From: Alphaproteobacteria bacterium
Lineage (GTDB): Bacteria > Pseudomonadota > Alphaproteobacteria > JAAXGF01
Assembly: GCA_963555825.3 (NCBI GenBank)
Contig: CAUVXB020000001.1
Coordinates: 2,336,001 to 2,400,000, forward strand
Direction: 5' to 3'
Length of the DNA stretch: 64,000 bases
Part shown: positions 871 to 51,953 of the stretch, piece by piece
Layout: the number at the start of each line of letters is the position of its first letter
How positions within the stretch are numbered: position 1 is the first letter of the stretch
The notes under the pieces: model-generated
Told to the model about the DNA's origin: nothing
The model's input: only the letters and a program-made list of their open reading frames with translations
Database searches by the model: none
Position numbers and translations under genes: made by a program

Positions 871-1046
871 TGAGCACAATCCGATCGACCTTGATCGGTC
901 GGATTATGCCAGCCTGCGCCAATCTTATACCAACAAGAGGGGGGCCGCCGACCGTTCGGCCACCCTTGATCCCATAAGATTGGCATGCGCGGCGATTGAG
1001 CGCAGGTCAGCTTCACAAAGTGAAGATGACCGCACAAAGAATTTAG
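871..1046 (+). repeat. Structured intergenic repeat family A, copy 1
   Basis: Three hairpins; shares GGCCGCCGACCGTTCGGC and TGACCGCACAAA with other copies. Confidence 0.9.
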
Positions 1047-1375
1047 TCGAGGAAGAAGTTGGCGGTCTCGTCGGGCAGCGTGACGACCAGTCCGTCGTAG
1101 TCGTCGCACATGACGATCTGGCAACCGAGGCGTGACGTCTGGGTCAGGCCGAAAGCGAGGTCGAGCATATCCTCCTCGTCCTCGCTCGCCTCCGGCAGCT
1201 TGGCAAAGTCGGCGGCATCGACGATGACGTGGCAGGTCGCACAGGCCATCGAGCCCTCGCAGGCGCCCTCGATGCCGATGTCGTTGCGGTTCGCGATCTC
1301 GAGCAGCGACAGGCCGTTCGGCGCGTCGACCTCGCGACGCGTGCCAGCGGCAACGATGAACGTCATCCTCGGCAT
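1043..1375 (-). CDS. fdx: 2Fe-2S ferredoxin (adrenodoxin/ISC type)
   Basis: GACEGSMACATCH and TSRLGCQ motifs; start trimmed to MPRMTF. Confidence 0.93.
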   Translation of the reverse strand: MPRMTFIVAAGTRREVDAPNGLSLLEIANRNDIGIEGACEGSMACATCHVIVDAADFAKLPEASEDEEDMLDLAFGLTQTSRLGCQIVMCDDYDGLVVTLPDETANFFLD

Positions 1376-1431
1376 CAAGATGCTCCGTGGGGGAGCGGTG
1401 CGGACCGGTCGATGCGCCGCGGGCGGCGGCG

Positions 1432-1767
1432 TCAGACGCGGAACGATTCGCCGCAGCCGCAGCGGCCAATCTCGTTCGGGTTGTTGAAGACGAAACCCGA
1501 ATGGAGCTTCTCCTCGACGTAGTCCATCTCGGCGCCGACCAGGAAGACCGCCGCCTCGGCGTCGACCACGACGGTCACGCCCTTGTCGTCGATGACCTGA
1601 TCGCCGGCATTCGCTGCCTCGGCGAAATCGATCGTGTAGGCCATGCCCGAGCAGCCGGCGTTGCGCACGCCGACGCGGAGGCCGAACTTGCCCTCGCCCT
1701 GCTCGCTCATCAGATGCTTGATGCGCACGGCGGCGGCGTCGGTCACGGTGATGGTCGATGTCGTCAC
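1432..1767 (-). CDS. iscA: A-type Fe-S carrier (HesB/IscA)
   Basis: GCSG and CGCGESF motifs. Confidence 0.93.
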   Translation of the reverse strand: MTTSTITVTDAAAVRIKHLMSEQGEGKFGLRVGVRNAGCSGMAYTIDFAEAANAGDQVIDDKGVTVVVDAEAAVFLVGAEMDYVEEKLHSGFVFNNPNEIGRCGCGESFRV

Positions 1768-1906
1768 GTCGCAACTCCCGAATTAGCGGTGGTCAACACA
1801 CTATATAGCCGTTTTTGGCGCAGTTTGAAGAGATAACACCAATATTTCCGTGCGCTTACTTAGGGCGACCCGTCGCGCGAGTCCATCGTTCTTTGGGCGC
1901 TTCGCC

Positions 1907-3103
1907 TCACGCGCTCTCGCGCACCGCGCCGGCGCGCAAGGCGATGACGTGCTCGACGACCGCGTCGATCACGTGGTCGATTTCGGCCTCGGTCGTGAAG
2001 CGGCCGACGCCGAAGCGGATCGAGCCGTCGGCCCGCGCGTCGTCGAGACCGATTGCACGCAGCACGTAGGACGGCTCGACCGCGGCCGAGGTGCAGGCCG
2101 AGCCGGTCGAGACCGCGACATCAGGCATCGCCTCCATCAAAGCCTGGGCCTCGACGCCGGCGAAGCTGAGGTTCAGGTTGCCGGGGATGCGGCGGGCCAT
2201 GCCACCGTTCGTGTAGACGCCGTCGAGCCGCGCCGCAATGCCGTTCATCAGCCGGTCACGCAGCTCGCGCAGACGCCCGGCCTCGCCCGCCATCTCGTCG
2301 CCGGCGATGCGGCAGGCGACGCCCAGACCGACGCAGAGCGGCGTCGGCAGCGTGCCCGAGCGATTGCCCCGCTCCTGTCCGCCACCGTCGATCAACGGCA
2401 CCAGGCGCACCCGTGGCCGGCGGCGCACGTAGAGCGCGCCGATGCCCTTGGGCCCGTACATCTTGTGCCCCGATAGGCTCATCAGGTCGATGTTCATTGC
2501 GTTGACGTCGAGCGACATCTTGCCGACTGCCTGCGCGCAATCGCTGTGGAACAGGGCGCCCACGGGGCGGCAGATCGCGCCGACCTCGGCAAGCGGCTGG
2601 ATGACGCCGATCTCGTTGTTGACCGCCATGACCGAGACCGCGATGGTGCGCTCATCAACCAACGTGGCGAGCGTTGCGAGGTCGATCAAGCCGCCGTCGT
2701 CGATCGGCGCCCAGGCGACCTCGAAGCCCTCGCGCTCGAGGCGCTTGCAGGTTTCGATGACGCATTTGTGCTCGGTCGCCACGCTGACGATCTTGTTGCG
2801 TTTGCGCCTGTTGATGTCGCGCTGGAAATAGGCGGCGCCCTTGAGCGCCAGGTTGTTCGATTCGGTCGCGCCCGAGGTGAAGACGATCTCGCGCGGTTCG
2901 GCGCCGATCAACGCGGCGACCTCGGCGCGCGCCGCCTCGACCGCCGTGGCCGCCTCGGCGCCAAAGGCGTGACTCACCGAATGGGGGTTGCCGAACATCT
3001 CCGTGAAGTAGGGCAGCATGGCGTCGACGACGCGTACGTCGGCCGGCGTCGTCGCCTGATAGTCGAGATAGATCGGCAGTGAGAGGTGCGGGGCTTCAGA
3101 CAT
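1907..3103 (-). CDS. iscS: Cysteine desulfurase
   Basis: [28 protein letters not shown]. Confidence 0.93.
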
Positions 3104-3112
3104 CGATACGCC

Positions 3113-4231
3113 TCACGCCGCCGTCAGCGACGCGGTGTCGCGCCGCCGATCGTAGAGCGCGCGCCAGGCCTCGACCAGCCGCTCGACGTCGGCCGTCGTC
3201 GAGCGCCAGCCCAGGCTGACGCGGATGGCGTCGCCGGCATTCGCGCCGGCGCCCATGGCCTGAAGCACATGCGAGGCGGTAACCTTGCCCGACGAGCACG
3301 CCGATCCGGCGCTGACCGCGACGCCGGCGAGGTCGAGCGCCATGACCTGGGTCTCGCCCGCCGTGCCCGGCAGCGCGATGCATGTCGTGTTGCACAGCCT
3401 GGGCACGGCGTCGCCGAACACGACGGCCTCGGGCGCGATGGCCCGGATACACCGCTCCACATCGTCGCGCAGCGCGGCAATGCGGCCGACGTCAGCGAGG
3501 TCGTCCCCCGCCAGCTCGACGGCAACGCCAAAGCCTACGATGCCGGCGGCGTTCTCGGTGCCCGCGCGGCGACCCATCTCCTGGCGGCCGCCATGAAGCG
3601 ACGGTCCGAGCGCGACGCCGTCGCCGACGATCAGCGCGCCGACGCCTTGGGGCCCGCCCAGCTTGTGCGCGGACAAGGTCATCATATCGGCGCCCAGCGC
3701 GGTGAAATCGACCCCGATACGGCCGGGCGCCTGCACCGCGTCGCAGTGCAACAGCGCGCCATGGGCATGCGCGAGCGCCGCGGCCTCGGCGACCGGCTGG
3801 ATGACGCCGGTCTCGTTGTTGGCCGCCATCACCGAGACCAGCGCCGGCCGGTCGTCGGCGGCGAGCGCCGCCTCGAGCGCGGCGAGATCGACCACGCCAT
3901 CGGTGTCGACCGGAACCAGGGCCGCGTCGGGCGCCGCGCGCAGCACCGAATCATGCTCGATCGCCGAGACGATCAGGCGCGCCCGGCCGCTGCCGACAAG
4001 CGCCAGGTTGTTGGCCTCGGTGCCGCCCGATGTGAACACGACCTGGTCCGGCGGCGCGCCCACCAGCGTGGCGACGCGCTCGCGTGCGTCGTCGATCGCG
4101 CGGCGCGCCAGCCGGCCGAAGCGATGCACCGACGAGGCGTTGCCAGCGAGGTCATGGGCCCCCGCCACGGCCGCCGCGACGGCGGGCTTGACCGGGACGC
4201 TGGCGTTATAGTCGAGGTAGCACGGCGTCAC
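3113..4231 (-). CDS. Second cysteine desulfurase (NifS/IscS family)
   Basis: YLDYNAS, SAHKLGGP, SAGSACSSG; GTG start overlaps the iscR stop (GTGA). Confidence 0.9.
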   Translation of the reverse strand: MTPCYLDYNASVPVKPAVAAAVAGAHDLAGNASSVHRFGRLARRAIDDARERVATLVGAPPDQVVFTSGGTEANNLALVGSGRARLIVSAIEHDSVLRAAPDAALVPVDTDGVVDLAALEAALAADDRPALVSVMAANNETGVIQPVAEAAALAHAHGALLHCDAVQAPGRIGVDFTALGADMMTLSAHKLGGPQGVGALIVGDGVALGPSLHGGRQEMGRRAGTENAAGIVGFGVAVELAGDDLADVGRIAALRDDVERCIRAIAPEAVVFGDAVPRLCNTTCIALPGTAGETQVMALDLAGVAVSAGSACSSGKVTASHVLQAMGAGANAGDAIRVSLGWRSTTADVERLVEAWRALYDRRRDTASLTAA

Positions 4232-4710
4232 CTGATGACCCGCAGATCGGCGGTCTCGCGCGCCGCCTCGCCGTGACGGATCAGGCCGCTGGTGCCGAGC
4301 ACCCGGCCGCTGCGGACCTCTTCGAGCGAGACCGAGCTCAAATACAGATAAATCTGGTTGCCGAGCTCTTCCCACAGGTCGTGGGTCAGGCAGCGGCTCT
4401 TGTTGCCGCGGCAGCCTGTCGGCGAGCCAGGCTGACAGCGCGTCGCCCGGATCGGTTCGTCGACCGCGAGGATGATGTCGGAGATCCGGATGTCCGTGGC
4501 ATCACGTGCCAGTTTGTAGCCGCCGCCGGGGCCACGCACGCTGTTCACCAGATGGCCGCGTCTCAACTTGCCGAAAAGCTGCTCCAGGTAGGACAGCGAA
4601 ATTTCCTGGCGCTGTGCGATGGCGGCCAGCGGGATCGGCTGACCACGGCTCTTGTTGGCCAGATCGGCCATCGCCATCACGGCGTAGCGTCCCCGTGTGC
4701 TTAGTTTCAC
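4228..4710 (-). CDS. iscR: Rrf2-family Fe-S regulator
   Basis: MKLSTRGRYAV, RGPGGGY, three Cys plus THDLW. Confidence 0.9.
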   Translation of the reverse strand: MKLSTRGRYAVMAMADLANKSRGQPIPLAAIAQRQEISLSYLEQLFGKLRRGHLVNSVRGPGGGYKLARDATDIRISDIILAVDEPIRATRCQPGSPTGCRGNKSRCLTHDLWEELGNQIYLYLSSVSLEEVRSGRVLGTSGLIRHGEAARETADLRVIR

Positions 4711-4725
4711 TTGTCGTCTCCCTGT

Positions 4726-5475
4726 TCAGGACGCCGTTGGCTTGTCGGCGTTCTCGTCTTCGTCGTCGTAGCGGCCTGGCGTCACACGCGCGAGCCGGTC
4801 GAGTTCGCGCTCGAGTTCCTGGACCCGCGCCGACAGCGTGCCGACGTGTTCGAGCAGCCCATCGATGGCGCGGCTGACCGGATCGGGCAGGTCGGGCGAT
4901 GGCGTGCCGTAGGCGTCGAACTTCTGGGGCCGCGCCTTGTCGCGCGGGCCGACCGGCCGCGCCGGGATACCGACCACCGTGGCGCCCTCGGGCACCTCTT
5001 TGAGGACCACCGAGTTGGCGCCGACGCGGGCGTTGCGGCCGACCGTGATGGGGCCCAGCACCTGGGCGCCCGAGCCGACGATGACACCGTCGTCGAGCGT
5101 CGGATGGCGCTTCTGGTTGACCTGCGACGCCGCATCGACCGATGGCGCGATGCCGCCCAACGTGACGTCGTGGTAGAGCGTCACGTCGTCGCCGATTTCC
5201 GCCGTCTCGCCGATCACGACGCCCATGCCGTGGTCGATGAAGAACCGATAGCCGATCTTCACGCCGGGGTGAATCTCGATGCCCGTCAGGAAGCGCCCGA
5301 GATGCGAGATGAAGCGCCCCAGAAGCTTGAGGTGGCTGTTCCACGCCCAATGCGCCACGCGGTAGAACTGGATCGCGTGAAAACTCGGGTAGCACAGAAT
5401 GACCTCCAGGCGCGTGCGCACCGCCGGGTCGCGCTCGAAGACGACATCTATATCTTCGCGAAGTCTCTTGAACAT
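4726..5475 (-). CDS. cysE: Serine O-acetyltransferase
   Basis: [29 protein letters not shown]. Confidence 0.95.
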
Positions 5476-5545
5476 TACCGTTCCCGCCGACTAATATACC
5501 GTCTGGCCTGATCGACGATGTCGAACAGGCCACAAAACCGTCACA

Positions 5546-5590
5546 GTCAACTCAATCGGTCATATATATTTCCCGACTCACCCGGTCAAG
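5546..5590 (-). promoter_or_regulatory. Two tandem IscR/Rrf2-like boxes upstream of cysE-iscR
   Basis: Minus strand CTTGAC-N7-GTCGG and ATGAC-N7-GTTGA resemble the TGAC-N7-GTCA box. Confidence 0.5.
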
Positions 5591-5708
5591 TTTAGGCCCT
5601 GCGTTTTTACCGATGCCGGGTGAATGTCCCTACTCGTGGGTCGGGTATATTTGCCGATGTGTTGGCCGACCGCCAGCTTTGAATTCATGACATATGGAAT
5701 AGGTGACG

Positions 5709-6362
5709 ATGCCTGAGGTGTTCGTCAACGGCCCCGAAGGCCGGCTCGAAGGGCGCTATAAGCACGGTGACCGGCCCGACGCGCCGGTCGCCCTCGTGCT
5801 CCATCCGCACCCGCAGTACGGCGGGACGATGAACAACAAGGTGGCCTACACGCTGTATCAGTCGTTTAGCCAGTTGGGATTCTCGGTGCTGCGCATCAAT
5901 TTTCGCGGCGTCGGTCGCAGCCAGGGCGAATTCGACAACGGCCCCGGCGAGCTGAGTGACGCCGCCTCGGCGCTCGACTGGCTGCAGGGCTTCAACCCGA
6001 ACGCGTCGAGCTGCTGGATCGGCGGCTTCTCGTTCGGCGCCTGGATCGCCATGCAGGTCTTGATGCGCCGGCCCGAGATCGCCGGCTTCATCGCCGTGTC
6101 GCCGCCCGCCAATATGTACGAATTCACCTTCCTGGCGCCCTGCCCGTCGTCCGGGCTGATCCTTCATGGCAGCGCCGACGAGTTGGTGCCCGAGCCGGTC
6201 GTCGCTACGCTGGCGGAAAAACTGTCGCTGCAGAAGAACATCACGATCGACTACGACATCGTCGATGGCGCCGACCATTTCTTCCAGAACCACATCGAGA
6301 CGTTTACCGAGCGGGTTGACCGCTATCTCGCGCGCCGTCTCAAGGCCGCCGCCAGTAGCTAG
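5709..6362 (+). CDS. Conserved alpha/beta hydrolase
   Basis: HPHPQYGGTMNNK, GFSFG nucleophile elbow, GADHFF. Confidence 0.9.
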   Translation: MPEVFVNGPEGRLEGRYKHGDRPDAPVALVLHPHPQYGGTMNNKVAYTLYQSFSQLGFSVLRINFRGVGRSQGEFDNGPGELSDAASALDWLQGFNPNASSCWIGGFSFGAWIAMQVLMRRPEIAGFIAVSPPANMYEFTFLAPCPSSGLILHGSADELVPEPVVATLAEKLSLQKNITIDYDIVDGADHFFQNHIETFTERVDRYLARRLKAAASS

Positions 6363-6375
6363 TGGATAGATTCGA

Positions 6376-7473
6376 CTAGTGGCGGTGCAACGCGCCACCG
6401 GTTAGCGGCCGCGGCGCGCCGGTCGTGCCCGGCACGGTTAGCGCGAGGCCGTCGAGCGCGCGCACGGCGAGATAGGCGAAGGCCTGCGCCTCGAGCGCGT
6501 CGCCGTCCCATCCGACCGCCTCGACCGGCTCGACCGGCACGCCGAGCGCCGCCACAAGCTCGGCCATCAGAACTGGGTTGTGGCGCCCGCCGCCACCGAC
6601 CAGCCAGCGTCGCGGCGCTTCGGCGAGGTGGTCGCGCGCCCTGACCACCGCGCCGACGGTGAACGCCGTAAGTGTCGCCGCGCCATCGGACGCCGAGAGA
6701 CCATCGAGCGCCGCGACGGCGCCCGCGAAGTCGTCGCGGTCGAGCGATTTGGGCGGCGGCCGATCGAAATATGGGTTGTCGAGCAGGCCCGCCAGAATGT
6801 CGTCGTGCACCGTACCCACGCGCGCCAGTGCCCCGTCGGCGTCGAACCGCCCGCCGCCGTGCCGCGCCACCCAGTCGTCGACCAAGGCGTTGCCGGGGCC
6901 GGTATCGAAAGCGCAGATCGCGTCGTCTTCGCCCAGCCCATCTTCGCCCAACCAGGTCACGTTGCCGACGCCGCCGAGGTTGAGCACGGCGAGCGGCCGA
7001 TCGAGCGGCGACGCCAGCGCCGCATGGTAAAGCGGCGCCAGTGGCGCGCCCTGTCCACCGGCCGCCACGTCGTGGCTGCGTAAATCGCAGATCACGTCGA
7101 TCCCGGTACGCTCGGCGAGCAACGCGCCATCGCCGATCTGCCACGTGATCGCCTCGTCCGGGCGATGGACGATGGTGTGACCGTGAAAGCCGATGACATC
7201 GACCTCCTCGGCCGCCACGCCGGCCTCGGCGAGCAGCGCCGCGACCGCCTCGGCATGCGCCACGGTGACGTCGCGCTGGACGGCCATGACATCGCCCCGG
7301 CCGCCCAGACTGGCGCGCAGGCGGTCGCGCAGGCCGGCGTCGTAGGCGCGGGTCGCGCTCGCGCCGGGATGCGCCGTGGCGCGCCCGTCGGTGCGCAACA
7401 GCGCGGCGTCGATGCCGTCGAGCGAGGTGCCGCTCATCAGGCCAAGCGCGAGTCGTTCGTTTCCTGCGCTCAT
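6376..7473 (-). CDS. anmK: Anhydro-N-acetylmuramic acid kinase
   Basis: GLMSGTSLDGID, GFHGHT, GGQGAPL, FDTGPGN. Confidence 0.95.
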   Translation of the reverse strand: MSAGNERLALGLMSGTSLDGIDAALLRTDGRATAHPGASATRAYDAGLRDRLRASLGGRGDVMAVQRDVTVAHAEAVAALLAEAGVAAEEVDVIGFHGHTIVHRPDEAITWQIGDGALLAERTGIDVICDLRSHDVAAGGQGAPLAPLYHAALASPLDRPLAVLNLGGVGNVTWLGEDGLGEDDAICAFDTGPGNALVDDWVARHGGGRFDADGALARVGTVHDDILAGLLDNPYFDRPPPKSLDRDDFAGAVAALDGLSASDGAATLTAFTVGAVVRARDHLAEAPRRWLVGGGGRHNPVLMAELVAALGVPVEPVEAVGWDGDALEAQAFAYLAVRALDGLALTVPGTTGAPRPLTGGALHRH

Positions 7474-7603
7474 GTCAGCCTTCTGTGCCGTGGTGCGATC
7501 GAGGCGGGCGGCGTTGTCGGGCGCCGGCGAGTGTGATACATGAGCGGCGCCCGCATGGCCGAGGCCATCATAGCCGAAGCCGCCAACCAATGACCAACCG
7601 GCG

Positions 7604-8860
7604 ATGACCGAAATTCGATCCGACTTTCTGCGCGAGATCACGACGCGTGGTTACTTGCACCAGTGCACCGACATCGAGGCGCTCGATGCCCTGGCAGCCG
7701 GGCCGACGCCCGTCGTCGCCTACGTCGGCTATGACTGCACGGCGCAAAGCCTGCATGTCGGCAACCTGGTCTCGGTTATGATGCTGCGCCTGTTTCAGCG
7801 CACCGGCCACAAGCCGATCGTGCTGCTGGGCGGCGGCACGACGCGGGTCGGCGACCCGTCGGGCAAGGACGAAATGCGCCAAATGCTGGACGACGACGCG
7901 ATCGCGCACAACATGGCCAGCATCGAGGCGGTTTTCCGCAAATACCTCGATTTCGGCGACGGCCCGACCGACGCCATCATGGTCAACAACGCCGACTGGC
8001 TCGACGAACTGAACTATATCGGCTTCATGCGCGACTACGGCCATCACTTCTCGGTCAACCGCATGCTGAGATTCGATTCGGTCAAGCTGCGTCTCGACCG
8101 CGAGCAGCCGCTGACCTTCATCGAGTTCAACTACATGGTGCTGCAGGCCTACGATTTCGTCGAACTCGCCAGGCGCCACGGCTGCGCACTGCAGATGGGC
8201 GGCTCGGACCAGTGGGGCAACATCGTCAACGGCGTTGAGCTCGGCCGCCGCGTCGACGGCACCGCGCTTCATGGCCTGACAACGCCGCTCATCACGACCG
8301 CGTCGGGTGCCAAGATGGGCAAGACCGCGCAGGGTGCGGTTTGGCTTAACGCCGACATGCTGTCGCCCTACGACTACTGGCAGTTCTGGCGCAACACCGA
8401 CGACGACGACGTCGGCCGCTTCATGCGCCTGTTCACCGAGCTGCCCGCGGACGAGATCGACGGCTTCGAAGCGCTCGGGGGTGCCGAGGTAAACGACGCT
8501 AAGCAGCGCCTCGCGGAGGCGGCGACGACCCTGTGCCATGGCGCCGAAGCCGCCAAGGCGGCGGCGCAAACGGCGCAGAAGACGTTCGGCGAGGGCGCCT
8601 ATGGCGGCGCGTTGCCGGTGGTCGACGTGCCGCGCGTCGAGCTCGAGGACGGTATCGCCGCCTTCGAGCTGTTCCGCAGATCCGAGCTCTGCGCGACCGG
8701 GGGGGAGGCGCGTCGCCTGATCAAGGGCGGCGGCGCGCGTGTCAACGACGCGCCGATTGCGTCGGAGACCACGTCGGTGACGCTGAGCGACGTCAACGCC
8801 GAGGGGATCATCAAGCTGTCGGCCGGCAAGAAGCGCCACGCGTTGGTGCGCGCCGTCTAA
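7604..8860 (+). CDS. tyrS: Tyrosine--tRNA ligase
   Basis: HVGN (HIGH), [16 protein letters not shown]-terminal S4 domain. Confidence 0.97.
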
Positions 8861-8867
8861 TACCGAA

Positions 8868-9147: not shown

Positions 9148-9176
9148 TATACCAAGGATCAGGCGCGCGCGCCGCG

Positions 9177-12341: not shown

Positions 12342-12367
12342 TGTGCGACGAATCGTTAAAGCGCCGA

Positions 12368-16190: not shown

Positions 16191-16202
16191 TAAAATGGCC
16201 GC

Positions 16203-16332: not shown

Positions 16333-16380
16333 TTCGTCGACGAGATAGTGGCAAGGGCTGACGAATGAGCGCAACGTGGC

Positions 16381-28085: not shown

Positions 28086-28090
28086 GCGGC

Positions 28091-28267
28091 TAACGCATAA
28101 TCCGATCGAATGGAACCGATCGGATTATGCCAGCCCGCGCCAGTCTTATTGGGACAAGAGGCGGGCCGCCGACCGTTCGGCCAGCTTTGATTCCACAAGA
28201 TTGGCATGCGCGGCGATTGAGCGCAGGTCATCTTCACGAAGTGAAGGTGACCGCACAAATTCTCTAG
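28091..28267 (+). repeat. Structured intergenic repeat family A, copy 2
   Basis: Full length; perfect 14-bp first stem GCATAATCCGATCG/CGATCGGATTATGC. Confidence 0.9.
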
Positions 28268-37744: not shown

Positions 37745-37755
37745 TCCTTGGTATA
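37741..37755. repeat. Solo terminus of MITE-like element B
   Basis: CTGATCCTTGGTATA identical to 9135-9149; overlaps the rne stop. Confidence 0.7.
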
Positions 37756-37760
37756 AGGCG

Positions 37761-38909: not shown

Positions 38910-38916
38910 CCGCTTA

Positions 38917-43922: not shown

Positions 43923-44012
43923 TCAATCCCGCGTGAGCCGCCGCGCGCCTAACTTGTCGGCGCGGGTCGCAGATGGCATGATGGCGCGCCTGTTGTCACG
44001 AGAGGTTTTTCA

Positions 44013-44789
44013 ATGAGCTTGTCGACCGACCATCCCTTCCGGCGCCTGGCTATTGGCGTAGTCTCGTTCCTCGCGATCACCGTCATGACGGTGGGAGCGG
44101 CGCGCGCCGAGCACAAGGTGACGACGCCCGAGCAGGCCGACATCGAGGGTGCGATCCACCAGTACCTGCTCGAGCACCCCGAGGTGATCATCGAGGCGGT
44201 CGAGATCCTGCGTGAGCGCGAGCAGGCCGGCAAGGTGGCCGGCGCGCGCGAGCAGATCGAGCTGCAGCGCGAAACGCTGATCAACGACCCGACTTCGCCA
44301 ATCGGCGGCAACCCCGATGGCGACGTCACGCTGGTCGAGTTCTTCGATTATCACTGCGGCTATTGCAAGCGCGTGCTCGGCGACATGCTGGTGCTGCTCG
44401 ACGACGATCCCAACGTGCGCGTCGTATACAAGGAATTCCCGATACTCGGCCCGCAGTCGGTCACCGCCGCGCGCATCGCGCTCGCCGCCAACCGTCAGGA
44501 CCCCGCCAAGTACATGGACTTCCACGTCGCGCTGATGGCCAGCCGCGCGCGGCTCAACGAGGATCGCGCTTTTCAGATGGCGCGCGAGATGGGCTTCGAC
44601 GTCGACGGTCTCAAGGCCGACATGAACTCGGACGAAATCAGCCGGATAATCCAGGACAATATCGAACTGGCCCGCGCACTCGGCATCAACGGCACGCCGA
44701 GCTTCATCATCGGCGACCAACTGGTCCCCGGCGCGGTCAGCCTCGACACGCTCAAGGAACTGATCGCGCGCGCGCGCGCCGCCAGCTAA
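44013..44789 (+). CDS. DsbA/Com1-family thiol-disulfide oxidoreductase
   Basis: EFFDYHCGYCK, GINGTP. Confidence 0.92.
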   Translation: MSLSTDHPFRRLAIGVVSFLAITVMTVGAARAEHKVTTPEQADIEGAIHQYLLEHPEVIIEAVEILREREQAGKVAGAREQIELQRETLINDPTSPIGGNPDGDVTLVEFFDYHCGYCKRVLGDMLVLLDDDPNVRVVYKEFPILGPQSVTAARIALAANRQDPAKYMDFHVALMASRARLNEDRAFQMAREMGFDVDGLKADMNSDEISRIIQDNIELARALGINGTPSFIIGDQLVPGAVSLDTLKELIARARAAS

Positions 44790-44964
44790 CGCATAGTCCG
44801 ATCGATAGAAACCGGTCGGTTTACTTCAGCCCGCGCCAGTTCTGGTGGGACAAAAGGGGGGCCGCCGACCGTTCGGCCACCCTTGATCCCATAAGATTGG
44901 CGTGCGCGGCGATTGAGCGCAGGTCGTCTTTACGTAAGTCAAAGATGACCGCACAAATGATTAG
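44787..44964 (+). repeat. Structured intergenic repeat family A, copy 3
   Basis: Fills the gap between two convergent stop codons. Confidence 0.9.
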
Positions 44965-45617
44965 CGCAGCCTGTCGCGCGCGATGACGATGGAATTCAGG
45001 AAGCCAGGCGCCGTCGTCTCGTCGTCGTAGTCGGCTTGGGCGACGCATGTGACGGCGTTGACGCCGTATTTGTAGCCGTTCTGCTGAATTCCCCAATACG
45101 TCAACGCGGCGATACAGACGCGATCGGCGCAGCCAATCGAGGCATAGAACCAGGTCGATCCGGCGAGCTTCATCGAGCGCGTCGGCGACCAACCGGCGCC
45201 CTGGCCTGTGGCGCAGTGCAAGCGGCGCTTCGACGCCCATTGGGCGACGTTCGCGATGAATGGCAGGTGGCTGCGGAACATCGCCTCGTTGAGCGTGACC
45301 GCGGCGGCGCCGACCGGTGTCTCGGCGCGAACCGCGTAGACGTTGCCGCGCGCTTCGGCCTCGCTGATTCGCGGATCGGGCGGCGACATGCGTTTGTAAT
45401 GCTGGTTGCCGTCGAAGGCAGGGTGCCCGATCGCCGCGTCGAAGCTGCAACGCGCCGCCGCGCCGGCGCCCTCGATTGAAATTGGCGCCGCCGCGCAATC
45501 GGCCGGCGTCGCGTCACGCTCGATCAAGGCAATCTGTGCGACGGCGACCGTCGGCTGGAGCAGCAGAAACGCCCCGGCGATGAAAGCGAGCCCCGTCGAT
45601 CGACACCACGCCAGCAT
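44961..45617 (-). CDS. Hypothetical secreted Cys-containing protein
   Basis: Signal-peptide-like N-terminus (AVA-Q); fills the gap; six Cys in the mature part. Confidence 0.6.
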   Translation of the reverse strand: MLAWCRSTGLAFIAGAFLLLQPTVAVAQIALIERDATPADCAAAPISIEGAGAAARCSFDAAIGHPAFDGNQHYKRMSPPDPRISEAEARGNVYAVRAETPVGAAAVTLNEAMFRSHLPFIANVAQWASKRRLHCATGQGAGWSPTRSMKLAGSTWFYASIGCADRVCIAALTYWGIQQNGYKYGVNAVTCVAQADYDDETTAPGFLNSIVIARDRLR

Positions 45618-45748
45618 GCGACACCCCCTTCGGCAACCGGCGCGTACAACGCCACACCATGCCGCGCTTGACAAGCGGCTTGCCGCCGGGCCAGCGTGTC
45701 GGCTCCGCCGCGCCGCCGCGGCGACCGACATTCACGAGGCCGGAAGAG

Positions 45749-46672
45749 ATGACCGAGCAACACCGTATGTGTGGCGTCTTCGCCCCCGTGCTGACGCCCA
45801 TGCGCGACGACCTGAGCCCCGATACCGAGCGCTTCGTGGCGCTGTGCAAATCGCTGCTCGAAGACGGCTGCCACGGCCTGGTTCTGTTCGGCACCACCAG
45901 CGAGGCCAACTCGCTCGGGCTCGACGAGCGCATCGCGCTGACCGAGGCCGTTGTCGACGCCGGCGTCTCGCCCGAGTTGCTGATGGTCGGCACCGGGCTG
46001 TGCGCGTTGCCCGAGACGGTTCGCCTGACGCGCCATGCGGTCGCGCTGGGCTGCGCCGGCGTGCTGATGCTGCCGCCGTTCTATTACAAGGGGATGAGCG
46101 ACGAGGGCCTCTACCGCGCCTTCGCCGAGGTCTTCGACCGCGTCGCCGACGACCGGCTGCGCGTCTACCTCTACCACTTCCCCAAGATATCGGCGGTGGC
46201 GCTCGGCCTCGACCTGATCGAGCGGCTCAGGGCCTCCCATGGCGACACCGTCGCCGGCGTCAAGGACAGCTCGGGCGACTGGTCAAACACCAGCGCGCTG
46301 CTCGAGCGCTTCCCCGGCTTCGGCGTCTTCACGGGCACCGAGACGCTGATGCTCGCGAGCCTCAGGGGCGGCGGGCCAGGCTGCATCTCGGCAACTGCCA
46401 ACATCAACGCGCACGCGCTGCGCGAGCTCTACGACAACTGGCGGACCGCCGACGCCGACGCGATCGACGCGCGCGTCCGCGCGGTGCGCCGGGCGGCCGA
46501 GACCAAGCCGACGATCCCGGGCCTCAAGGCGGTGCTGGCGCGCCAGTTGGGCGACGCCGGCTGGCTCAACCTGCGCCCGCCGCTGGTCGGCCTCGACGCC
46601 GCCCGGCAGGCCGAGCTGTTCGCCGAGCTGGAGGCAGCCGGCTACCGCCTCGCCCGCGCCGCCGCCGAATAG
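45749..46672 (+). CDS. Dihydrodipicolinate synthase-family aldolase
   Basis: FGTTSE, PPFYYK, YLYHFP, GVKDSSGD. Confidence 0.92.
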   Translation: MTEQHRMCGVFAPVLTPMRDDLSPDTERFVALCKSLLEDGCHGLVLFGTTSEANSLGLDERIALTEAVVDAGVSPELLMVGTGLCALPETVRLTRHAVALGCAGVLMLPPFYYKGMSDEGLYRAFAEVFDRVADDRLRVYLYHFPKISAVALGLDLIERLRASHGDTVAGVKDSSGDWSNTSALLERFPGFGVFTGTETLMLASLRGGGPGCISATANINAHALRELYDNWRTADADAIDARVRAVRRAAETKPTIPGLKAVLARQLGDAGWLNLRPPLVGLDAARQAELFAELEAAGYRLARAAAE

Positions 46673-46690
46673 CCGACGCGCCTGCGTGGT

Positions 46691-46853
46691 GGATTAAGTT
46701 CAGCCCGCGCCAATCGTATCCCAACAAGAGGCGGGCCACCGACCGTTCGGCCAATCCTTGTCGGATTAAGAATGGCCTTGTGGGATTAAGATTGGCATGC
46801 GCGGTGATTGATCGCAGGTCACCGAAGGTGACCGTACAAACAAACACGACTAA
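46691..46853 (+). repeat. Structured intergenic repeat family A, copy 4 (first hairpin lost, third shortened)
   Basis: GGCCACCGACCGTTCGGCC core; GGTCACC-GAA-GGTGACC. Confidence 0.85.
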
Positions 46854-48133
46854 CCCACGCTTTCGCCGTGTTGGCCGATGTCGAGGCCTTCGCGCTCAGC
46901 TTCTTCGTCGACGCGCAGCGGGATCACCAAGCCGATCAGCTTGAGCAGCGCGAACGAGACCACGCCACAGTAGGCGACGGTCACGGCGATGCCGTAGATC
47001 TGGGTGCCGATCTGGCCCCAGTTGCCCTCGAGCGCGCCGGACGCACCGCCGACCGCCTCGACCGCGAAGACGCCGGTGAGCAGCGCGCCGACGATGCCGC
47101 CGAGGCCGTGCACGGCGAAGACGTCGAGCGAGTCGTCATAGCCCAGCCTGTGCTTGAGCCAGGTCGCACCCCAGAAGCAGGCGGCGCCGGCGATGACGCC
47201 GATGGCGAGCGCCCCGGCGCCGTCGACGTAGCCCGAGGCCGGCGTGATCGCGACCAGGCCGGCGATCGCGCCCGAGGCGATGCCCAGCACGCTCGGCTTC
47301 TTGTGGATCAGCCACTCGATGAACATCCAGGAAAGCGCCGCGGCGGCGGCGGCGATCTGCGTCACCGCCATGGCCATGCCCGCCGCGCCGTCGGCGGCGA
47401 CCTCCGAGCCGGCGTTGAAGCCGAACCAGCCGACCCACAGCAGCGAGGCGCCGATGACCGTCAGCACCAGGTTGTGCGGCGCCATGTTCTCGCGCCCGTA
47501 GCCGACCCGCTTGCCGAGCACCAGCGCGGCGACCAGGGCGGCGACGCCCGAGTTGATGTGCACCACGGTGCCGCCGGCGAAGTCGAGCACGCCGGCGGCG
47601 CCAACGCCAAGGAAGCCGCCGCCCCACACCCAGTAGCAGATCGGCGCATAGACGATCAGCGACCACAGCCCGACGAACCACAACAGCGCCGAGAATCGCA
47701 TGCGCTCGGCGATCGCCCCGGTGATCAGCGCGGGCGTGATGATGGCGAATGTCATCTGGAAGATCATGAACACCGATTCGGGGATAGTGCCGCTCAGCGC
47801 ATCGGTCGTCAGGCCGCGCAGGAACAGCCGATCGAGGCCGCCGACCAAGGCGCCGCCCGGGCTGAACGCCAGGCTGTAGCCGGCGACCATCCAGACCACC
47901 GTGATCAGGCAGACGACGGTGAACGACTGCATCACCGTGCCGAGCACGTTCTTCTTGCGCACCATGCCGCCATAAAACAGCGCGACGCCCGGAATCGTCA
48001 TCATCAGGACCAGCACCGTCGCGGTCAGCATCCAGGCGGTGTCGCCGCTGTCGAGCGCCGCCGCATCCTGCGCCAACGCCGGCGCCGCCCAGAGCGCGCC
48101 GACAAGGAATAGTCCCGCCACCAAAATTCGCAT
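46850..48133 (-). CDS. amtB: Ammonium transporter
   Basis: GDTAW, FQMTFAIIT, DFAGGTVVH, WFGFNAGS, DDSLDVFAVH. Confidence 0.96.
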   Translation of the reverse strand: MRILVAGLFLVGALWAAPALAQDAAALDSGDTAWMLTATVLVLMMTIPGVALFYGGMVRKKNVLGTVMQSFTVVCLITVVWMVAGYSLAFSPGGALVGGLDRLFLRGLTTDALSGTIPESVFMIFQMTFAIITPALITGAIAERMRFSALLWFVGLWSLIVYAPICYWVWGGGFLGVGAAGVLDFAGGTVVHINSGVAALVAALVLGKRVGYGRENMAPHNLVLTVIGASLLWVGWFGFNAGSEVAADGAAGMAMAVTQIAAAAAALSWMFIEWLIHKKPSVLGIASGAIAGLVAITPASGYVDGAGALAIGVIAGAACFWGATWLKHRLGYDDSLDVFAVHGLGGIVGALLTGVFAVEAVGGASGALEGNWGQIGTQIYGIAVTVAYCGVVSFALLKLIGLVIPLRVDEEAEREGLDIGQHGESVG

Positions 48134-48209
48134 GCCATAGCTCCCAGTCCATGTCCGGCGGCCTGGCGAACGCGCCGGCCACTCGTGGTCTCGATTCACA
48201 GATGAAGAC

Positions 48210-48356
48210 CCAAGAATCGTGCCAATAGCCCAAAGCCATTGGGATTCATGGAATTTCAGGAGGTTCGCACAGGCCGCGGGCACGCGCCCTTACGCCGCCG
48301 GCCAATAATATTGCCTAAATATTAAGCTCTCGAAAAATTTGGTTTATTTTTAGGCA
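48210..48356 (-). promoter_or_regulatory. Sigma54-like promoter and putative NtrC sites for amtB
   Basis: TTGGCAC-GATTC-TTGG at 48225-48210; TTGCCTAAA half-sites at 48311 and 48356. Confidence 0.55.
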
Positions 48357-48384
48357 ATTCCGGCGCCGTCGCCATCGCTATCCG

Positions 48385-48921
48385 GTGTCGGTAGACTGGG
48401 CTTCGATCGGCGCTGGGATGATGGGGAATCGTCGGATGGCTGCTTGCCGCGGGCGCGCAACGGGGACCGGGCTGGCCGAACTGCGGCGCGTTCTCTTCGT
48501 CGTCGCGGTCGGCCTTGTCGTCGTCGGGTGGACACCGGCTACGCGTGCCGATGAGCTTGTCTCGCGCATCGAGGCCCGCGAACTGGGCGGCGCGGCGATG
48601 ACCTTCCTGGTGTTCGGACCCGAGCGCGGCCAGCTGATGTGCTACGTCGACGGCTGGTCGCTGTGGTTCGGGCTTTATCTCGCCTGCGATGATTGCCGGA
48701 TCGAAGCGCCCGACTGCATCCTGTTGTCCACTCTCGACGCCGGCGTGGGCGGCATGCGCGACAAGCTCGGCATCGACCTCCCCTACGCCGCCTTCGGCGA
48801 CACCCGCGTCGTGTTCGACGGCTTCTCGGGCGCCGCGTTGCTCGACCTCTGCCACGCCTTCGCGGCGAGCCTCGCGGAAAGCGACGACCCCGCCGCGCTG
48901 TGCATCGAACCGGTGCCTTAG
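48385..48921 (+). CDS. Hypothetical exported protein
   Basis: Hydrophobic signal-like segment, GC3-biased codons; start uncertain. Confidence 0.55.
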   Translation: MSVDWASIGAGMMGNRRMAACRGRATGTGLAELRRVLFVVAVGLVVVGWTPATRADELVSRIEARELGGAAMTFLVFGPERGQLMCYVDGWSLWFGLYLACDDCRIEAPDCILLSTLDAGVGGMRDKLGIDLPYAAFGDTRVVFDGFSGAALLDLCHAFAASLAESDDPAALCIEPVP

Positions 48922-49053
48922 CGCCTAATCCGATCGATCGAAACCGATCGTATTTACCAGCCCGCGACCGCGGGCCGCCGACCGTTCGGCGAAAGCATGC
49001 GCGGCGACTGAGCGCAGGTCATCTTTACGCAGTAAAGGTGACCGCACAAAAAA
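48919..49053 (+). repeat. Structured intergenic repeat family A, copy 5 (central stem shortened)
   Basis: Both arms of the lower central stem are missing while the apical core is retained. Confidence 0.88.
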
Positions 49054-49184
49054 CGCAACCCTGCGCAACAATCTGCTTGCGATTTCGAAGCATTCGCCGA
49101 ACACTCGCGATTATGGCGTCGGGCCTTCGGGGAAGTTTCCCGATCCGGCCCGAACGGGTGTCGGTGAAGCGGGAGGCGACTGAC

Positions 49185-50744
49185 ATGGCGCGACCACAAA
49201 GACGCGGGCGCGAGGCCCGCATGGCCGAACGGCAAGCCCCATCTCCGGTCGAAGAGCGTCCGGTCTGGCCCGGCCTCGAGGGCGGCAAGTTCAAGGCCCT
49301 CAGTCAGCGCGAGATGGAGCGCGTCCACGAGACCGCGCTCGACCTCCTGGAGAAGGTCGGCCTCGCCGACTCGACGCCCGAGATGGTCGAGCTGGTGACC
49401 GCCGCCGGCGGCACGATGTCGGACACAGGCCGGCTTCACTTCCCGCGCGCGCTGGTCGAGGACATCATCGCCAGCACGCGGCGCGGCATCGTCATGCCGG
49501 GTTTCGCGTCCGAGCACGACATGGACGTCAGCGGGACCAAGCTCTATTGCGGCACCGGCGGCGCCGCGCCCTACATCGTCGACTTCGAGACCGGCGATTA
49601 CCGCGAGACGGTGCTCGCCGACCTCTACGACATCGCACGCCTGGTCGACTCGCTCGACAACATCCATTTCTTCTGGCGCACCATCGTCACGCGCGACATG
49701 CCGACCAACCGCGACCTCGACATCAATACCGTCTACGCCTGCATGAGCGGCACCGCGAAGCATATCGGCGCCAGCTTCGTTAACGCCGACAACGTCGCCG
49801 AGGCGGTCGACATGTTCGACGTCGCGCTGGGCGGCGAGGGCCGCTTCCGCGAGCGGCCGTTCTGCACGATCTCGTGCTGCCACGTCGTGCCGCCGCTGCG
49901 CTTCGCCGTCGATTCCTGCGACGCGCTCGCCATGGCGGTGCGCCGCGGCATGCCGGTGCTGCTGCTGTCGGCCGGCCAGGCCGGCGCGACCAGCCCGTCG
50001 GCGCTCGCCGGCTCGGTCGTCCAGGCGGTCGCCGAGGTGCTCGCCGGCCTGGTGTTCGCCAACCTGATCAGCCCCGAGTGCAAGACGCTGTTCGGCACCT
50101 GGCCCTTCGTCTCGGACCTGCGCACCGGGGCGATGAGCGGCGGCAGCGGCGAACAAGCAACGCTGATGGCCGCCTGCGGCCAGATGGCGACCTTCTACGA
50201 CCTGCCGAGCAGCATCGCCGCCGGCATGGCGGACTCGAAGATCCCCGACGCCCAGTCGGGCGCCGAGAAGGGCTACACCACCGTGCTGGCGGCCAATTCG
50301 GGCGTCAACCTGGTGCAAGAGAGCGCCGGCATGCAGGCCAGCCTGCTGGGCACCTCGTTCGAGGGCTATGTCATCGACAACGACGTCTTGGGCGCCGTGC
50401 AGCGCACCGTACGCGGCATCGAGGTGACCGACGAGACGCTGTCCTTCGAGGTCATCAAGGAAGTCGTCACCGAAGGGCCCGGCCACTACCTGGGCACCGA
50501 CCAGACGCTGAGCGGCATGGAGAAGGACTACTTCTACCCGGCGGTCGGCGACCGCAACACGCCGGCCGACTGGGAGGAGCTGGGCGCCACCGACGTGCGC
50601 GACCGCGCCAAGGACAAGGTGCGCGAAACGCTCGCCGCCCACTTCCCGAGCCACATCGACGAGGCGATCGACCAGCGCGTCCGCGAGCGGTTCAACATCC
50701 TGCTGCCGCGCGAGAACATGCTTCCCGGCAACACGCGCTGGTGA
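49185..50744 (+). CDS. MttB-family (non-pyrrolysine) methylamine/quaternary amine methyltransferase
   Basis: VVPPLRF, AGATSP..LAG, DLRTGAMSGG, DSKIPDAQSG.EK, GPGHYLG. Confidence 0.9.
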   Translation: MARPQRRGREARMAERQAPSPVEERPVWPGLEGGKFKALSQREMERVHETALDLLEKVGLADSTPEMVELVTAAGGTMSDTGRLHFPRALVEDIIASTRRGIVMPGFASEHDMDVSGTKLYCGTGGAAPYIVDFETGDYRETVLADLYDIARLVDSLDNIHFFWRTIVTRDMPTNRDLDINTVYACMSGTAKHIGASFVNADNVAEAVDMFDVALGGEGRFRERPFCTISCCHVVPPLRFAVDSCDALAMAVRRGMPVLLLSAGQAGATSPSALAGSVVQAVAEVLAGLVFANLISPECKTLFGTWPFVSDLRTGAMSGGSGEQATLMAACGQMATFYDLPSSIAAGMADSKIPDAQSGAEKGYTTVLAANSGVNLVQESAGMQASLLGTSFEGYVIDNDVLGAVQRTVRGIEVTDETLSFEVIKEVVTEGPGHYLGTDQTLSGMEKDYFYPAVGDRNTPADWEELGATDVRDRAKDKVRETLAAHFPSHIDEAIDQRVRERFNILLPRENMLPGNTRW

Positions 50745-50837
50745 GCCGGCCGCACGAGACCATGCCGGCAGGGTGGCCGCGCCCGGTCCGGCCCGCTCAC
50801 GGCACCGAGCCTTCAGCGTAGGCGGAGCGATCGAGCG

Positions 50838-51815
50838 ATGACGGAAGACCAGGAATGGGAATTCCCCGCGGCGGCGCAGCCGAACGCCGAGGACGTCGGC
50901 TTCGCGCTCGACGAGGTGCTGTCGTCCGTCCTGTCGCTTCGGTCCGAGATTCCCGACGACGCATTCACCGCGTCGATCCTGGGCACCCAGCGCGGTGGCA
51001 ACGGCGTGGTCATCGGCGACGACGGCCTGGTCCTGACGATCGGCTATCTGATCGCCGAGGCAGAAACGGTCTGGCTGGTCTCGGGTGACGGCAAGGCGAC
51101 GCCGGCGCATGTCGTCGGCTACGATCAGACGACGGGCTTCGGCCTGGTCCAGGCGTTGGGGCGGCTCGACGCGCTGGCGATCACGCTCGGCACGTCGCGA
51201 ACGACGCGCGTCGGCGACCCGGTCATCGTCGCCGGCAGCGGCGGCCGTCGGCACGCGTTGAACGCCCGGATCATGGCCAAACGCGAATTCGCCGGCTATT
51301 GGGAATACCTCCTCGACGAGGCGATATTCACCGAGCCGGCGCACCCACTGTGGGGCGGCGCGGCGCTCATCGGCGCGGACGGCAAGCTGCAGGGCATCGG
51401 TTCGCTGCTCGTTCAAGCGGCGCGCGACGACGACGCGTCGGACGAGATCAACATGTTCGTTCCGATCGACCTCTTGGCGCCGATACTCGACGACATGCTC
51501 AAGTACGGCAAGGTCGACCAGCCGCCGCGCCCGTGGCTCGGCATGCTCACGATGGAAGCCGACAACAGCCTCGTCGTCGCGGGGCTGACCGAAGGAGCGC
51601 CGGCGAACCAGGCGGGCCTACGGCTCGGCGACGCCGTCGTGAAGGTCGCCGAGGCGCCGGTCGTCGATCTGGTCGACATGTATCGCCGGATCTGGGCGCT
51701 CGGCCCGGCCGGAACGGTCATTCCCTTGACGATTAACCGAAGCGGCGCCGAGCGCGCCGTCGATGTGCATTCGGCCGATCGCAACGCGTTCCTCAAACCG
51801 CCCGACCTGCACTAA
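50838..51815 (+). CDS. S1C/HtrA-like trypsin-fold protein with PDZ domain
   Basis: GNGVVI, LTIGYLI, FAGYWEYLL, RPWLG. Confidence 0.85.
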   Translation: MTEDQEWEFPAAAQPNAEDVGFALDEVLSSVLSLRSEIPDDAFTASILGTQRGGNGVVIGDDGLVLTIGYLIAEAETVWLVSGDGKATPAHVVGYDQTTGFGLVQALGRLDALAITLGTSRTTRVGDPVIVAGSGGRRHALNARIMAKREFAGYWEYLLDEAIFTEPAHPLWGGAALIGADGKLQGIGSLLVQAARDDDASDEINMFVPIDLLAPILDDMLKYGKVDQPPRPWLGMLTMEADNSLVVAGLTEGAPANQAGLRLGDAVVKVAEAPVVDLVDMYRRIWALGPAGTVIPLTINRSGAERAVDVHSADRNAFLKPPDLH

Positions 51816-51953
51816 CGCGCAATTTGACCGATTGGGATCGGCCAAAACACCCCAGCCCGCGCCAATATTTTTGGGACAAGAGGGGGGCCATTTTGGAACA
51901 AGAGGAGGCCGCCAATTGCCAAGTGCATGGGCCGCATATAAGGTTTGCGCGGC
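51813..51953 (+). repeat. Structured intergenic repeat family A, degenerate copy 6
   Basis: TAACGC start, CAGCCCGCGCCAAT..TTGGGACAAGAGGGGGGCC, internal tandem duplication. Confidence 0.7.

Follow-up and report, generated by a model that had tools for sequence, protein, structure and literature searches.

A 64,000-nt window (G000:C1:2336001-2400000) of a two-contig, 6.04-Mb alphaproteobacterial genome with a G+C content of 65% (designated G000) was found to carry six copies of a hairpin-rich, non-coding repeat, which we interpret, with a probability of roughly 80%, as a non-autonomous MITE (a miniature transposable element with inverted repeats) of the IS630/Tc1-mariner type. The kind of element is well known, but the repeat forms a new family within it, in a sponge-associated, poorly known alphaproteobacterial host family; literature searches yielded no described MITE from a sponge symbiont. 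It is present in more than 200 copies in the genome, has defined ends that it shares with an insertion sequence (IS) of the same genome, overlaps stop codons at its termini, occupies sites that are empty in another genus, and contains hairpins that covary. A first-pass annotation, prepared from the window sequence alone, had proposed a non-autonomous, multi-copy, hairpin-rich mobile element, and this part of its proposal was supported.

A profile built from five of the window copies yielded 214 matches in G000, well beyond what chance would give, while a profile built from 117 full-length copies yielded 234 matches, distributed over both contigs and both strands (121 +, 113 -) at a density of approximately one copy per 26 kb. 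Copy lengths ranged from 128 to 246 bp and clustered near 130-140, 160-177 and 190 bp, with a short form of approximately 140 bp and long forms of 160-200 bp. In the window, a search with R1, a covariance model built in this analysis from the element, placed all six copies on the plus strand, at the locations originally reported (Table 1); R1 matches on the minus strand corresponded only to palindromic sub-hairpins of the same six copies. The G+C content of the element was 54-58%.

The terminal inverted repeat (TIR) of the element spans 9 bp (CTAGAGCRT ... AYGCTCTAG), with a TA inside a YTAR motif at both ends. At the 5' boundary, unrelated flanking sequence switched abruptly to YTAR-GCATAATCCGATCG. 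Y occupied the first position of this motif in 103 of the 117 full copies, and T, A and R the next three in 92, 99 and 107 copies, respectively; GCAT followed. The 3' end read GACCG-N9-C-TA-R, typically CACAATGNTCTAG. A 5' TA was present in 102 of 145 copies, and TA was also found at the modal 3' position. CTAGAGCRT occurred in inverted orientation at both ends of copies from G000 and from the related genomes G006 and G007, and several G007 copies carried exact CTAGAGCRT sequences at both ends, 141 bp apart. According to PMC2170065, members of the IS630 family insert at TA, which is duplicated upon insertion, and IS630 itself prefers TA inside CTAG. In 41 copies, the two terminal 4-mers were compared and matched in 7, against 7.1 expected by chance; this agrees with duplication of TA between a favoured C and a favoured G, and does not agree with duplication of 4 bp. 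An IS5-like, four-base duplication of YTAR was rejected on these grounds, and TA is probably duplicated at insertion.

G000 contained 151 matches to the IS630-family model NF033545 of NCBIfam, and three of its IS groups (ISW, ISX and ISY) either scored above an NCBIfam IS630 cut-off or contained a DDE_3 domain. A genome scan with 20-mers from both MITE ends revealed no autonomous element; ISW emerged from among the minor IS630 groups. This 1054-bp IS has the same terminal 9 nt as the MITE and was the only IS group in G000 with matching ends. The copy on contig C2 is flanked as c-TA-GAGCGT...ACGCTC-TA-g, both of its ends starting with TA-GAGCGTG, and encodes a helix-turn-helix (HTH) open reading frame (ORF) and a DDE ORF that are separated at an A8 run, possibly a programmed frameshift site. 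Over their first 29 positions, the left end of ISW and the 5' end of the MITE were identical at 17, comprising positions 1-7, two of positions 8-12, and an in-register TGGAATCG block. A 1071-bp relative of ISW with CTAGAGCRT at both ends was found in G006, and ISW-like DNA (67-75% identity) was detected in G005, G006, G007 and G010 and, weakly, in G004. ISW-like DNA thus occurred in 5 of the 6 MITE-bearing genomes of the same family and in none of the 6 genomes without the MITE, a comparison between kin that does not amount to an independent test. To judge from these shared ends, the MITE may have been mobilised by a transposase of the ISW type. In the 3' flank of one MITE copy (G000:C2:500219-435), at a distance of 14 bases from its TTAAG end, the sequence ...CACGCTCTAG looks like a solo right end of ISW.

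The two abundant IS630-family groups, ISX (1181 bp, 374-aa transposase, 69 copies) and ISY (approximately 1177 bp, approximately 75 copies at >99% identity, ends ATACCAGTGAGCGCC), were rejected as parents of the MITE: both are young, have ends unlike those of the MITE and merely abut or interrupt its copies. Seven of the 69 ISX right ends were located at most 15 nt from the edge of a MITE copy, and at C2:1324349-1326059 an ISY copy with a 278-bp internal duplication was inserted in the right arm of a MITE. At least three further IS630-family groups of approximately 1171-1175 bp (e.g., at C2:411857, C1:1254601 and C1:507504; 5, 13 and 2 copies) have ends that start with T(T/A)ATACCA.

The gene context of the copies was analysed with genes called by a simple, crude codon-usage model (4916 calls, 79% coding), in which the positions of stop codons are exact. 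A 5' TA was present in 102 copies, and in 42 of these it opened the stop codon of the incoming gene. Of 86 cases in which a gene converged on a copy, 33 had the stop codon exactly on the terminal C-TA, the modal position, and 58 had it within +8 to +14. Among 174 stop codons of genes ending at a copy, 110 were TAG, 23 TAA and 41 TGA, so that TAG accounted for 63% beside copies versus 34% of all called stops (TAA 15%, TGA 51%). The overall share of 34% TAG is itself high for a genome with 65% G+C. Copies were over-represented in convergent gaps (72 of 202 versus a baseline of 19%) and under-represented in divergent gaps (19 of 202 versus 19%).

According to the proposed mechanism, the CTAGAGCRT ... 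AYGCTCTAG ends would be bound by an IS630-family transposase that acts in trans and most plausibly resembles that of ISW; the enzyme would cut out the element and integrate it at a TA within YTAR, best CTAG, with duplication of the TA. Insertions into coding sequences would be harmful and TA, especially within CTAG, is rare in this GC-rich genome, where TA and CTAG occurred at 0.54 and 0.14, respectively, of the frequency expected from base composition. Suitable targets would be few, and outside coding sequences they would mostly be stop codons. Surviving copies would therefore pile up at the TA of TAG and TAA stop codons, where insertion is probably neutral. Since the element starts with G and ends with C, its insertion would rebuild TAG on either side, so that copies would come to fill intergenic gaps and abut stop codons. 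The close association with stop codons thus has a mechanical explanation in the ends of the element and its insertion at TAG or TAA, and TAG-rebuilding insertions by IS630-type elements may contribute to the high TAG usage of G000. Inserted copies have since decayed, lost or gained arms, and become landing pads for younger IS630-family elements.

BLAST searches detected the repeat in 6 of 12 other genomes of the same family. R1 gave at least 138 matches in G007, a 2.3-Mb metagenome-assembled genome (MAG), and 10 in G006. Both flanks of 17 of 31 copies in relatives mapped together in G000, corresponding to 16 distinct loci. At these syntenic loci, G000 was filled at 7 and empty at 9, which provided filled and empty sites between genera. 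Two of the 7 shared filled loci held copies in opposite orientation, indicating independent insertions into the same gap. At one G007 locus, two copies bracket a single gene; the corresponding gaps in G000 measure 0 and 5 nt, and the second of them reads CTCC-TA-GATAC (CTAG), in a comparison that is blurred by extra indels. Conversely, G006 has a 5-nt gap at the place that copy 4 occupies in G000. Among the 117 full copies, pairs were at most 90.6% identical (median, 75.5%), and copies 3-5 were found at the same sites in contigs of three DNA sequencing runs, which represented near-identical populations from different coded hosts and showed no insertion polymorphism. The low identity and the unchanged sites indicated that the family is old and gave no sign of current activity in G000. 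Sequencing runs that carried the element derived mostly from coded organisms and sponge metagenomes. At the densities seen in G000 and G007, the family is a leading source of broken assemblies and of spurious ORF calls in such MAGs, and the covariance model aids their annotation.

Folding of copy 5 showed that the short form consists of five successive hairpins, P1, Ha (GCCCGC-GACC-GCGGGC), Hb (CGCCGA-CCGT-TCGGCG), Hc (TGCGC-GGCGATTGA-GCGCA) and P3. In long forms, the Ha loop contains a 22-nt left arm, and a right arm complementary to it separates Hb from Hc; these arms pair to form the long P2 stem of the original description, as in the fold of copy 2 (-47.2 kcal/mol as single-stranded DNA; z = -6.5 versus shuffled sequences). 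Among 179 copies with an intact core, 75 contained both arms, 59 neither, 33 only the right arm and 12 only the left arm. The arms are separate modules. Symmetric loss of both P2 arms, as described for copy 5 in the first-pass annotation, was correct for that copy and did not extend to the genome as a whole. The right arm is a 20-nt unit in variable tandem number, reflected in split profile matches 17, 37, 57, 77 or 97 nt apart. Mid-stem tetramers of P2 were complementary in 37 copies and not complementary in 23, with approximately 34 complementary pairs expected without coupling.

Covariation was assessed in an alignment of 49 copies (44 from G000 and 5 from relatives), with counts of pair changes that ignore kinship within subfamilies. 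Overall, 85.5% of cells paired, and pairing fell to 31-38% when the 3' partner was slid by 1-3 columns. Changes on both sides of a pair occurred in 77 cells, versus 32.6 ± 5.7 in shuffled alignments, none of 500 of which reached 77. Double changes were seen in 12 of 14 P1 pairs and 8 of 11 P3 pairs, while 17% of P1 cells were unpaired, indicating that individual copies are decaying. Several hairpins thus covary as the first-pass annotation had anticipated, and its structure-preserving variation was borne out for P1, P3 and the apex; it did not hold for lower P2, where the tetramers were near chance. Both reported P3 variants (TTCAC/GTGAA and TTTAC/GTAAA) were recovered, as was the shortened P3 of copy 4 (GGTCACC-GAAG-GTGACC). 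The cGNAg triloops that had been highlighted in P3 do occur, although, by eye, the loop is variable and GNA loops are a minority in the 49 aligned copies.

The most conserved part of the element is a 62-nt core formed by Ha, Hb and Hc. The apex and right core were 94-95% identical to the consensus and the left core 90%, compared with 76-82% in the P1 arms, 78% in P3 and 62-74% in the termini. Ha and Hb were paired in 100% of 17 distinct core sequences, with compensatory changes from C-G to U-A or A-U, from A-U to C-G, from C-G to G-C and from G-C to A-U. In Hc, the loop-closing pair changed from C-G to U-A and the 9-nt loop GGCGAYTGA was conserved. In a sample of 150 genomes that represented 150 other families of the class, R1 matched two (G111 and G051), and a covariance model of the core only (R2) matched four (G111, 4 matches; G155, 9; G098, 2; G057, 1). 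In these genomes of other families, the three core hairpins were kept and P1 and P3 were replaced by unrelated hairpins. Hb was fully compensated (CGGCCA/UGGCCG, CGCGCA/UGCGCG, CGCCGC/GCGGCG) and the Hc loop stayed GGCGNUUGA. A scan of a contig collection with the 18-mer apex returned mostly chance matches in actinomycetes and a few real ones in alphaproteobacterial MAG records. The core-bearing repeats of G155 and G098 have inverted-repeat ends starting with (T)GATACC, a sequence similar to the TATACC-type ends that ISY and three further IS630 groups of G000 carry; this likeness covers 6 bases only and is a lead and not a finding.

Several of these observations weigh against an IS630-type MITE. 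Its ends are less conserved than its core, the reverse of what is usual for a TIR-dependent element, and cut-and-paste transposition gives no reason for five covarying hairpins. A TA was lacking at the 5' position in 43 of 145 copies, and the comparison of G000 with G007 gave no clean pair of filled and empty sites for the TA duplication, the sites differing by extra indels. The likeness to ISW is confined to the 9 terminal bases and one 8-nt block, and ISW is represented by just two full copies and one partial copy. To this are added the absence of any sign of recent activity at the median identity found, the lack of polymorphism among three near-identical populations, the crude gene calls that underlie the context counts, and a weak association of orientation with GC skew at one window size.

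The conserved hairpins raise the question whether the repeat is primarily a structured RNA family, consisting of small RNA genes or 3'-untranslated-region elements that act, for example, in mRNA 3'-end protection or protein binding, with mobility as a secondary trait. The invariably paired, compensated Ha and Hb, the conserved Hc loop, and a core that is kept across families while flanking hairpins change sequence yet stay hairpins are all consistent with such a role, as is the location of copies at gene 3' ends. In addition, metatranscriptome contigs extended from flanking genes into copy 3, which is not proof of transcription. However, copies between tandem genes showed no orientation preference (62 co-oriented versus 49 anti-oriented), hairpins were not followed by a U-tract on either strand, and no promoter-like site was found at the copies. 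Furthermore, 25% of the copies had only one P2 arm, the mid-stem tetramers of P2 did not covary and P1 was incompletely paired. In agreement with the original suggestion of an undescribed element, no copy matched an Rfam family at the gathering threshold, the best sub-threshold matches (E = 0.74-0.83) remaining far below family cut-offs. An RNA family in this sense is considered improbable. Function as an intrinsic terminator was also rejected: none of the terminator-like sites in positions 44000-49500 consisted of P3 or a core hairpin followed by a T run, the sites including the P1 hairpin of copy 3 (44798-44819, +) and a site just 3' of copy 5 (49066-49053, -).

Conservation of the core could be combined with transposition if the core were a functional module that was packaged repeatedly between the ends of different IS630 subgroups, with the MITE as the vehicle of a dispersed regulatory element. 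On this reading, which is tentative and clearly less likely to be right than wrong, the module would comprise Ha with loop GACY, Hb, and Hc with loop GGCGAYTGA, and the subgroups would be those with CTAGAGCRT ends (this MITE) and with ATACC-type ends (in G155 and G098). The core could act as a protein-binding site or as an RNA or DNA structure active in either orientation, for example by protecting or ending transcripts between convergent genes. If so, it would have been seeded at hundreds of gene 3' ends across several alphaproteobacterial families. A core that is more strongly conserved than the ends and is shared by repeats with other ends in four further families is not predicted by cut-and-paste transposition and is therefore a candidate exapted or hitch-hiking structured element, the sole feature of this family that goes beyond the ordinary. 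Selection on source copies, a host-level role that functions in both orientations, and palindrome-templated repair are all possible causes of its conservation. A comparison of rare variants for selection after insertion was uninformative, since it involved four letters and 200 copies.

For the six co-oriented window copies, the first-pass annotation had suggested possible spread by an HUH/Y1 enzyme with replichore strand bias. In such a scenario, the repeat would be a palindrome resembling repetitive extragenic palindromes (REP) and bacterial interspersed mosaic elements (BIME), or derived from IS200/IS605 elements (REPIN, PATE), and a Y1/HUH transposase would spread it in the form of single-stranded DNA. 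The stable local hairpins, which follow one another in a chain and show compensatory changes, would suit this scenario, and G000 encodes three Y1_Tnp proteins. Six out of six copies on the same strand has a two-sided probability of approximately 0.03 for one window, a value not corrected for the many windows scanned. Given the even strands across the genome, this co-orientation is local. Orientation clustered weakly (runs test, z = -2.2 on one contig), was not associated with local gene strand, and showed a link to local GC skew with just one half-window out of the three sizes used (p = 0.29 at 50 kb, 0.005 at 100 kb and 0.07 at 200 kb), in an IS-ridden two-contig assembly in which GC skew itself is weak. 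Strong strand bias is typical of IS200/IS605-type elements, and the pattern in G000 falls far short of it. Replichore strand bias was consequently rejected, and random orientation genome-wide, which the first-pass annotation itself had named as decisive, refutes the single-stranded-DNA/HUH reading.

The Y1 genes themselves pointed in the same direction. Each was flanked by its own, different palindromes (e.g., GTAGGGGCGGG...CCCGCCCCTAC), no MITE copy occurred within 5 kb of a Y1 gene, and the best R1 score at the three Y1_Tnp (RAYT-like) loci was 10.7 bits (E = 0.075), which is not significant. These loci are separate REP/RAYT systems (RAYT, REP-associated tyrosine transposase) that are unrelated to the MITE. 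At the locus C2:2726247-2729507, GTAGGGGCGGGTTTCAAACCCGCCCCTAC was found at locus positions 1243-1272 and 1807-1836. IS200/IS605 elements have paired end hairpins, unlike P1 and P3, whose sequences differ from each other; the element, moreover, has a TIR and TA at both ends. The repeat resembles REP/BIME systems with a RAYT in its high-copy palindromic units, mosaic make-up, location at gene 3' ends and use as an IS target, but lacks both a RAYT association and a GTAG-headed unit. The TIR and the even strands likewise separate it from IS200/IS605-derived PATE. Mobilisation by an HUH/RAYT enzyme was therefore rejected; the Y1/HUH reading is already largely refuted, and it is regarded as highly improbable.

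Mosaic structure and host also call to mind the repeats CIR, RIME and Bru-RS. According to PMC2229807, CIR (Chen and Shapiro, 2003) measures approximately 110 bp, has two arms and a GANTC conserved in a loop, and is listed without a TIR. On the same account, it shares with the present element an alphaproteobacterial host, intergenic location, TA termini, independent stem-loops joined by linkers, and conservation between species (PMC2229807). A host-maintained intergenic mosaic repeat of the CIR/RIME kind, whose YTAR ends would stem from selection on stop codons and not from transposition, would account for the optional arms, the tandemly variable 20-nt unit and conservation of the core beyond that of the ends. 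It is about as improbable as an RNA family. The 9-bp TIR is shared with an IS630-family IS that has the same C-TA...TA-G flanks, and, of the 102 copies in which a 5' TA is present, 60 carry YTAR at an end that adjoins no stop codon. The G000 element also differs from CIR, compared here by description only, in its length of 140-200 bp and its five hairpins. GANTC occurred at the P1-loop position in 51 of approximately 156 copies, a 3-fold enrichment without conservation, and 114 of 234 copies contained no GANTC at all; a CcrM/GANTC site was accordingly rejected as a conserved motif. A search of 72,556 plasmid records returned no similar DNA. Indirect comparison with RIME and Bru-RS drew on these plasmid records and on the 150 genomes from other families, of which the full model matched 2 and the core model 4.

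Among described elements, an IS630-type MITE such as proposed here is most readily compared with RUP, an IS630-linked MITE with a 9-bp TIR (PMC2229807). In that source, RUP is a small, non-coding, intergenic element of approximately 100-200 copies with a short TIR and TA termini, a TIR that resembles an IS630-family IS of the same genome (IS630-Spn1 for RUP, ISW here), and copies that associate with IS elements (PMC2229807). The two were compared by description, and no sequence relation is expected, the host of the present element being a GC-rich alphaproteobacterium. In contrast to RUP, which is described as recently mobile, the G000 family has a median identity of 75.5%, and its element is longer and mosaic, with three covarying core hairpins that exceed the TIRs in conservation. 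With the IS630/ISY100 elements, the MITE has in common the TA target, which those elements duplicate and the MITE probably does too; IS630 prefers CTAG (PMC2170065), and ISW and the MITE share C-TA-GAGCRT ends. Unlike these elements, the MITE encodes nothing, and its ends diverge from those of ISW past the first 9 bases. The Correia/NEMIS repeats of Neisseria are similar in having a TIR and a TA duplication (probable in the present element), length variants generated by an internal segment, a location at gene ends, and transcripts that fold into stable stem-loops, this last being a Correia feature (PMC2229807), but they fold end-to-end through 24-bp TIRs and are A+T-rich. The G000 element, by contrast, consists of local hairpins, with the G+C content and 9-bp TIR described above.

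Table 1. Copies of the MITE and associated features. Positions refer to the window unless a contig (C1, C2) is given. R1, covariance model score.
Feature	Position	Strand	Description
MITE copy 1	869..1046	+	Long form: P1, both P2 arms, core, P3; R1 165.4 bits
MITE copy 2	28090..28267	+	Long form; R1 187.2 bits
MITE copy 3	44786..44965	+	Long form; R1 154.9 bits
MITE copy 4	46666..46852 (R1 match 46666-46848)	+	R1 77 bits; nhmmer match
MITE copy 5	48918..49058	+	Short form, five hairpins in succession; R1 125.3 bits
P1 of copy 5	48931-48950	+	Fold
Ha of copy 5	48960-48975	+	Fold
Hb of copy 5	48976-48991	+	Fold
Hc of copy 5	48996-49018	+	Fold
P3 of copy 5	49017-49043	+	Fold
Conserved 62-nt core in copy 5	48957..49018	+	Ha, Hb, Hc with loop GGCGAYTGA; alignment, pair counts
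MITE copy 6	51812..51979	+	Degenerate; R1 30.5 bits; nhmmer E = 2e-9, profile positions 4-82
ISY, complete copy	57541-58720	+	HTH ORF 57630..58154; overlapping DDE ORF 57965..58708 in other frame
ISW, full copy	C2:2699160-2700213		1054 bp
ISW, full copy	C1:1807192-1808245		1054 bp
Y1_Tnp (RAYT-like) locus	C2:1865517-1868843		Own inverted palindromes
Y1_Tnp (RAYT-like) locus	C1:1323746-1327075		Own inverted palindromes
Y1_Tnp (RAYT-like) locus	C2:2726247-2729507		Own inverted palindromes

In the window, the stop codons described by the first-pass annotation were found adjoining copy 2 on its 3' side, copies 3 and 4 on both sides and copy 5 on its 5' side. Copy 2 starts with C-TA-ACGCAT and ends with TCTC-TA-G, its CTA at 28264-28266 being the TAG stop of a minus-strand gene that runs into the copy. 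Copy 3 occupies the entire gap separating the convergent ORFs 44013..44789 and 44961..45731 (-): its 5' TA (44787-44788) opens the stop codon of the former, and its 3' TA (44962-44963) lies within that of the latter. Copy 4 has lost the 5' hairpin P1 and contains a duplicated 20-nt right-arm unit, and its terminal CTA (46850-46852) forms the stop codon of ORF 46850..48283 (-). In copy 5, the 5' T-TA-G supplies the TAG stop (48919-48921) of ORF 48385..48921. The 5' terminal TA of copy 1 is degenerate (ATTGAGCAC), and only the 5' portion of copy 6, to about 51889, was recognised by the profile. ORF 44961-45731 (-), beside copy 3, had no counterpart at the same position in G007, G004, G005 and G010. 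The genes flanking the copy 3 site are 47-166 bp apart in these four genomes, and the corresponding stretch between the two neighbour genes in G000 is approximately 1 kb long, made up of copy 3 and this ORF.

ARAGORN detected no tRNA-like gene anywhere in the window. A match to Rfam PYLIS_3 (pyrrolysine insertion sequence, mttB) at window positions 50226-50325 (+), with 39.4 bits versus a gathering threshold of 38, is located inside the long ORF 48693..50744. Elsewhere in G000, ISX formed head-to-tail arrays with an exact 1181-bp period. Two arrays contain four units (C1:235259-238802 and C2:2333131-2336672) and one contains three (C1:1423232-1425594). Adjacent units have one CTAG junction in common, and the arrays could represent either real IS multimers or an effect of assembly.

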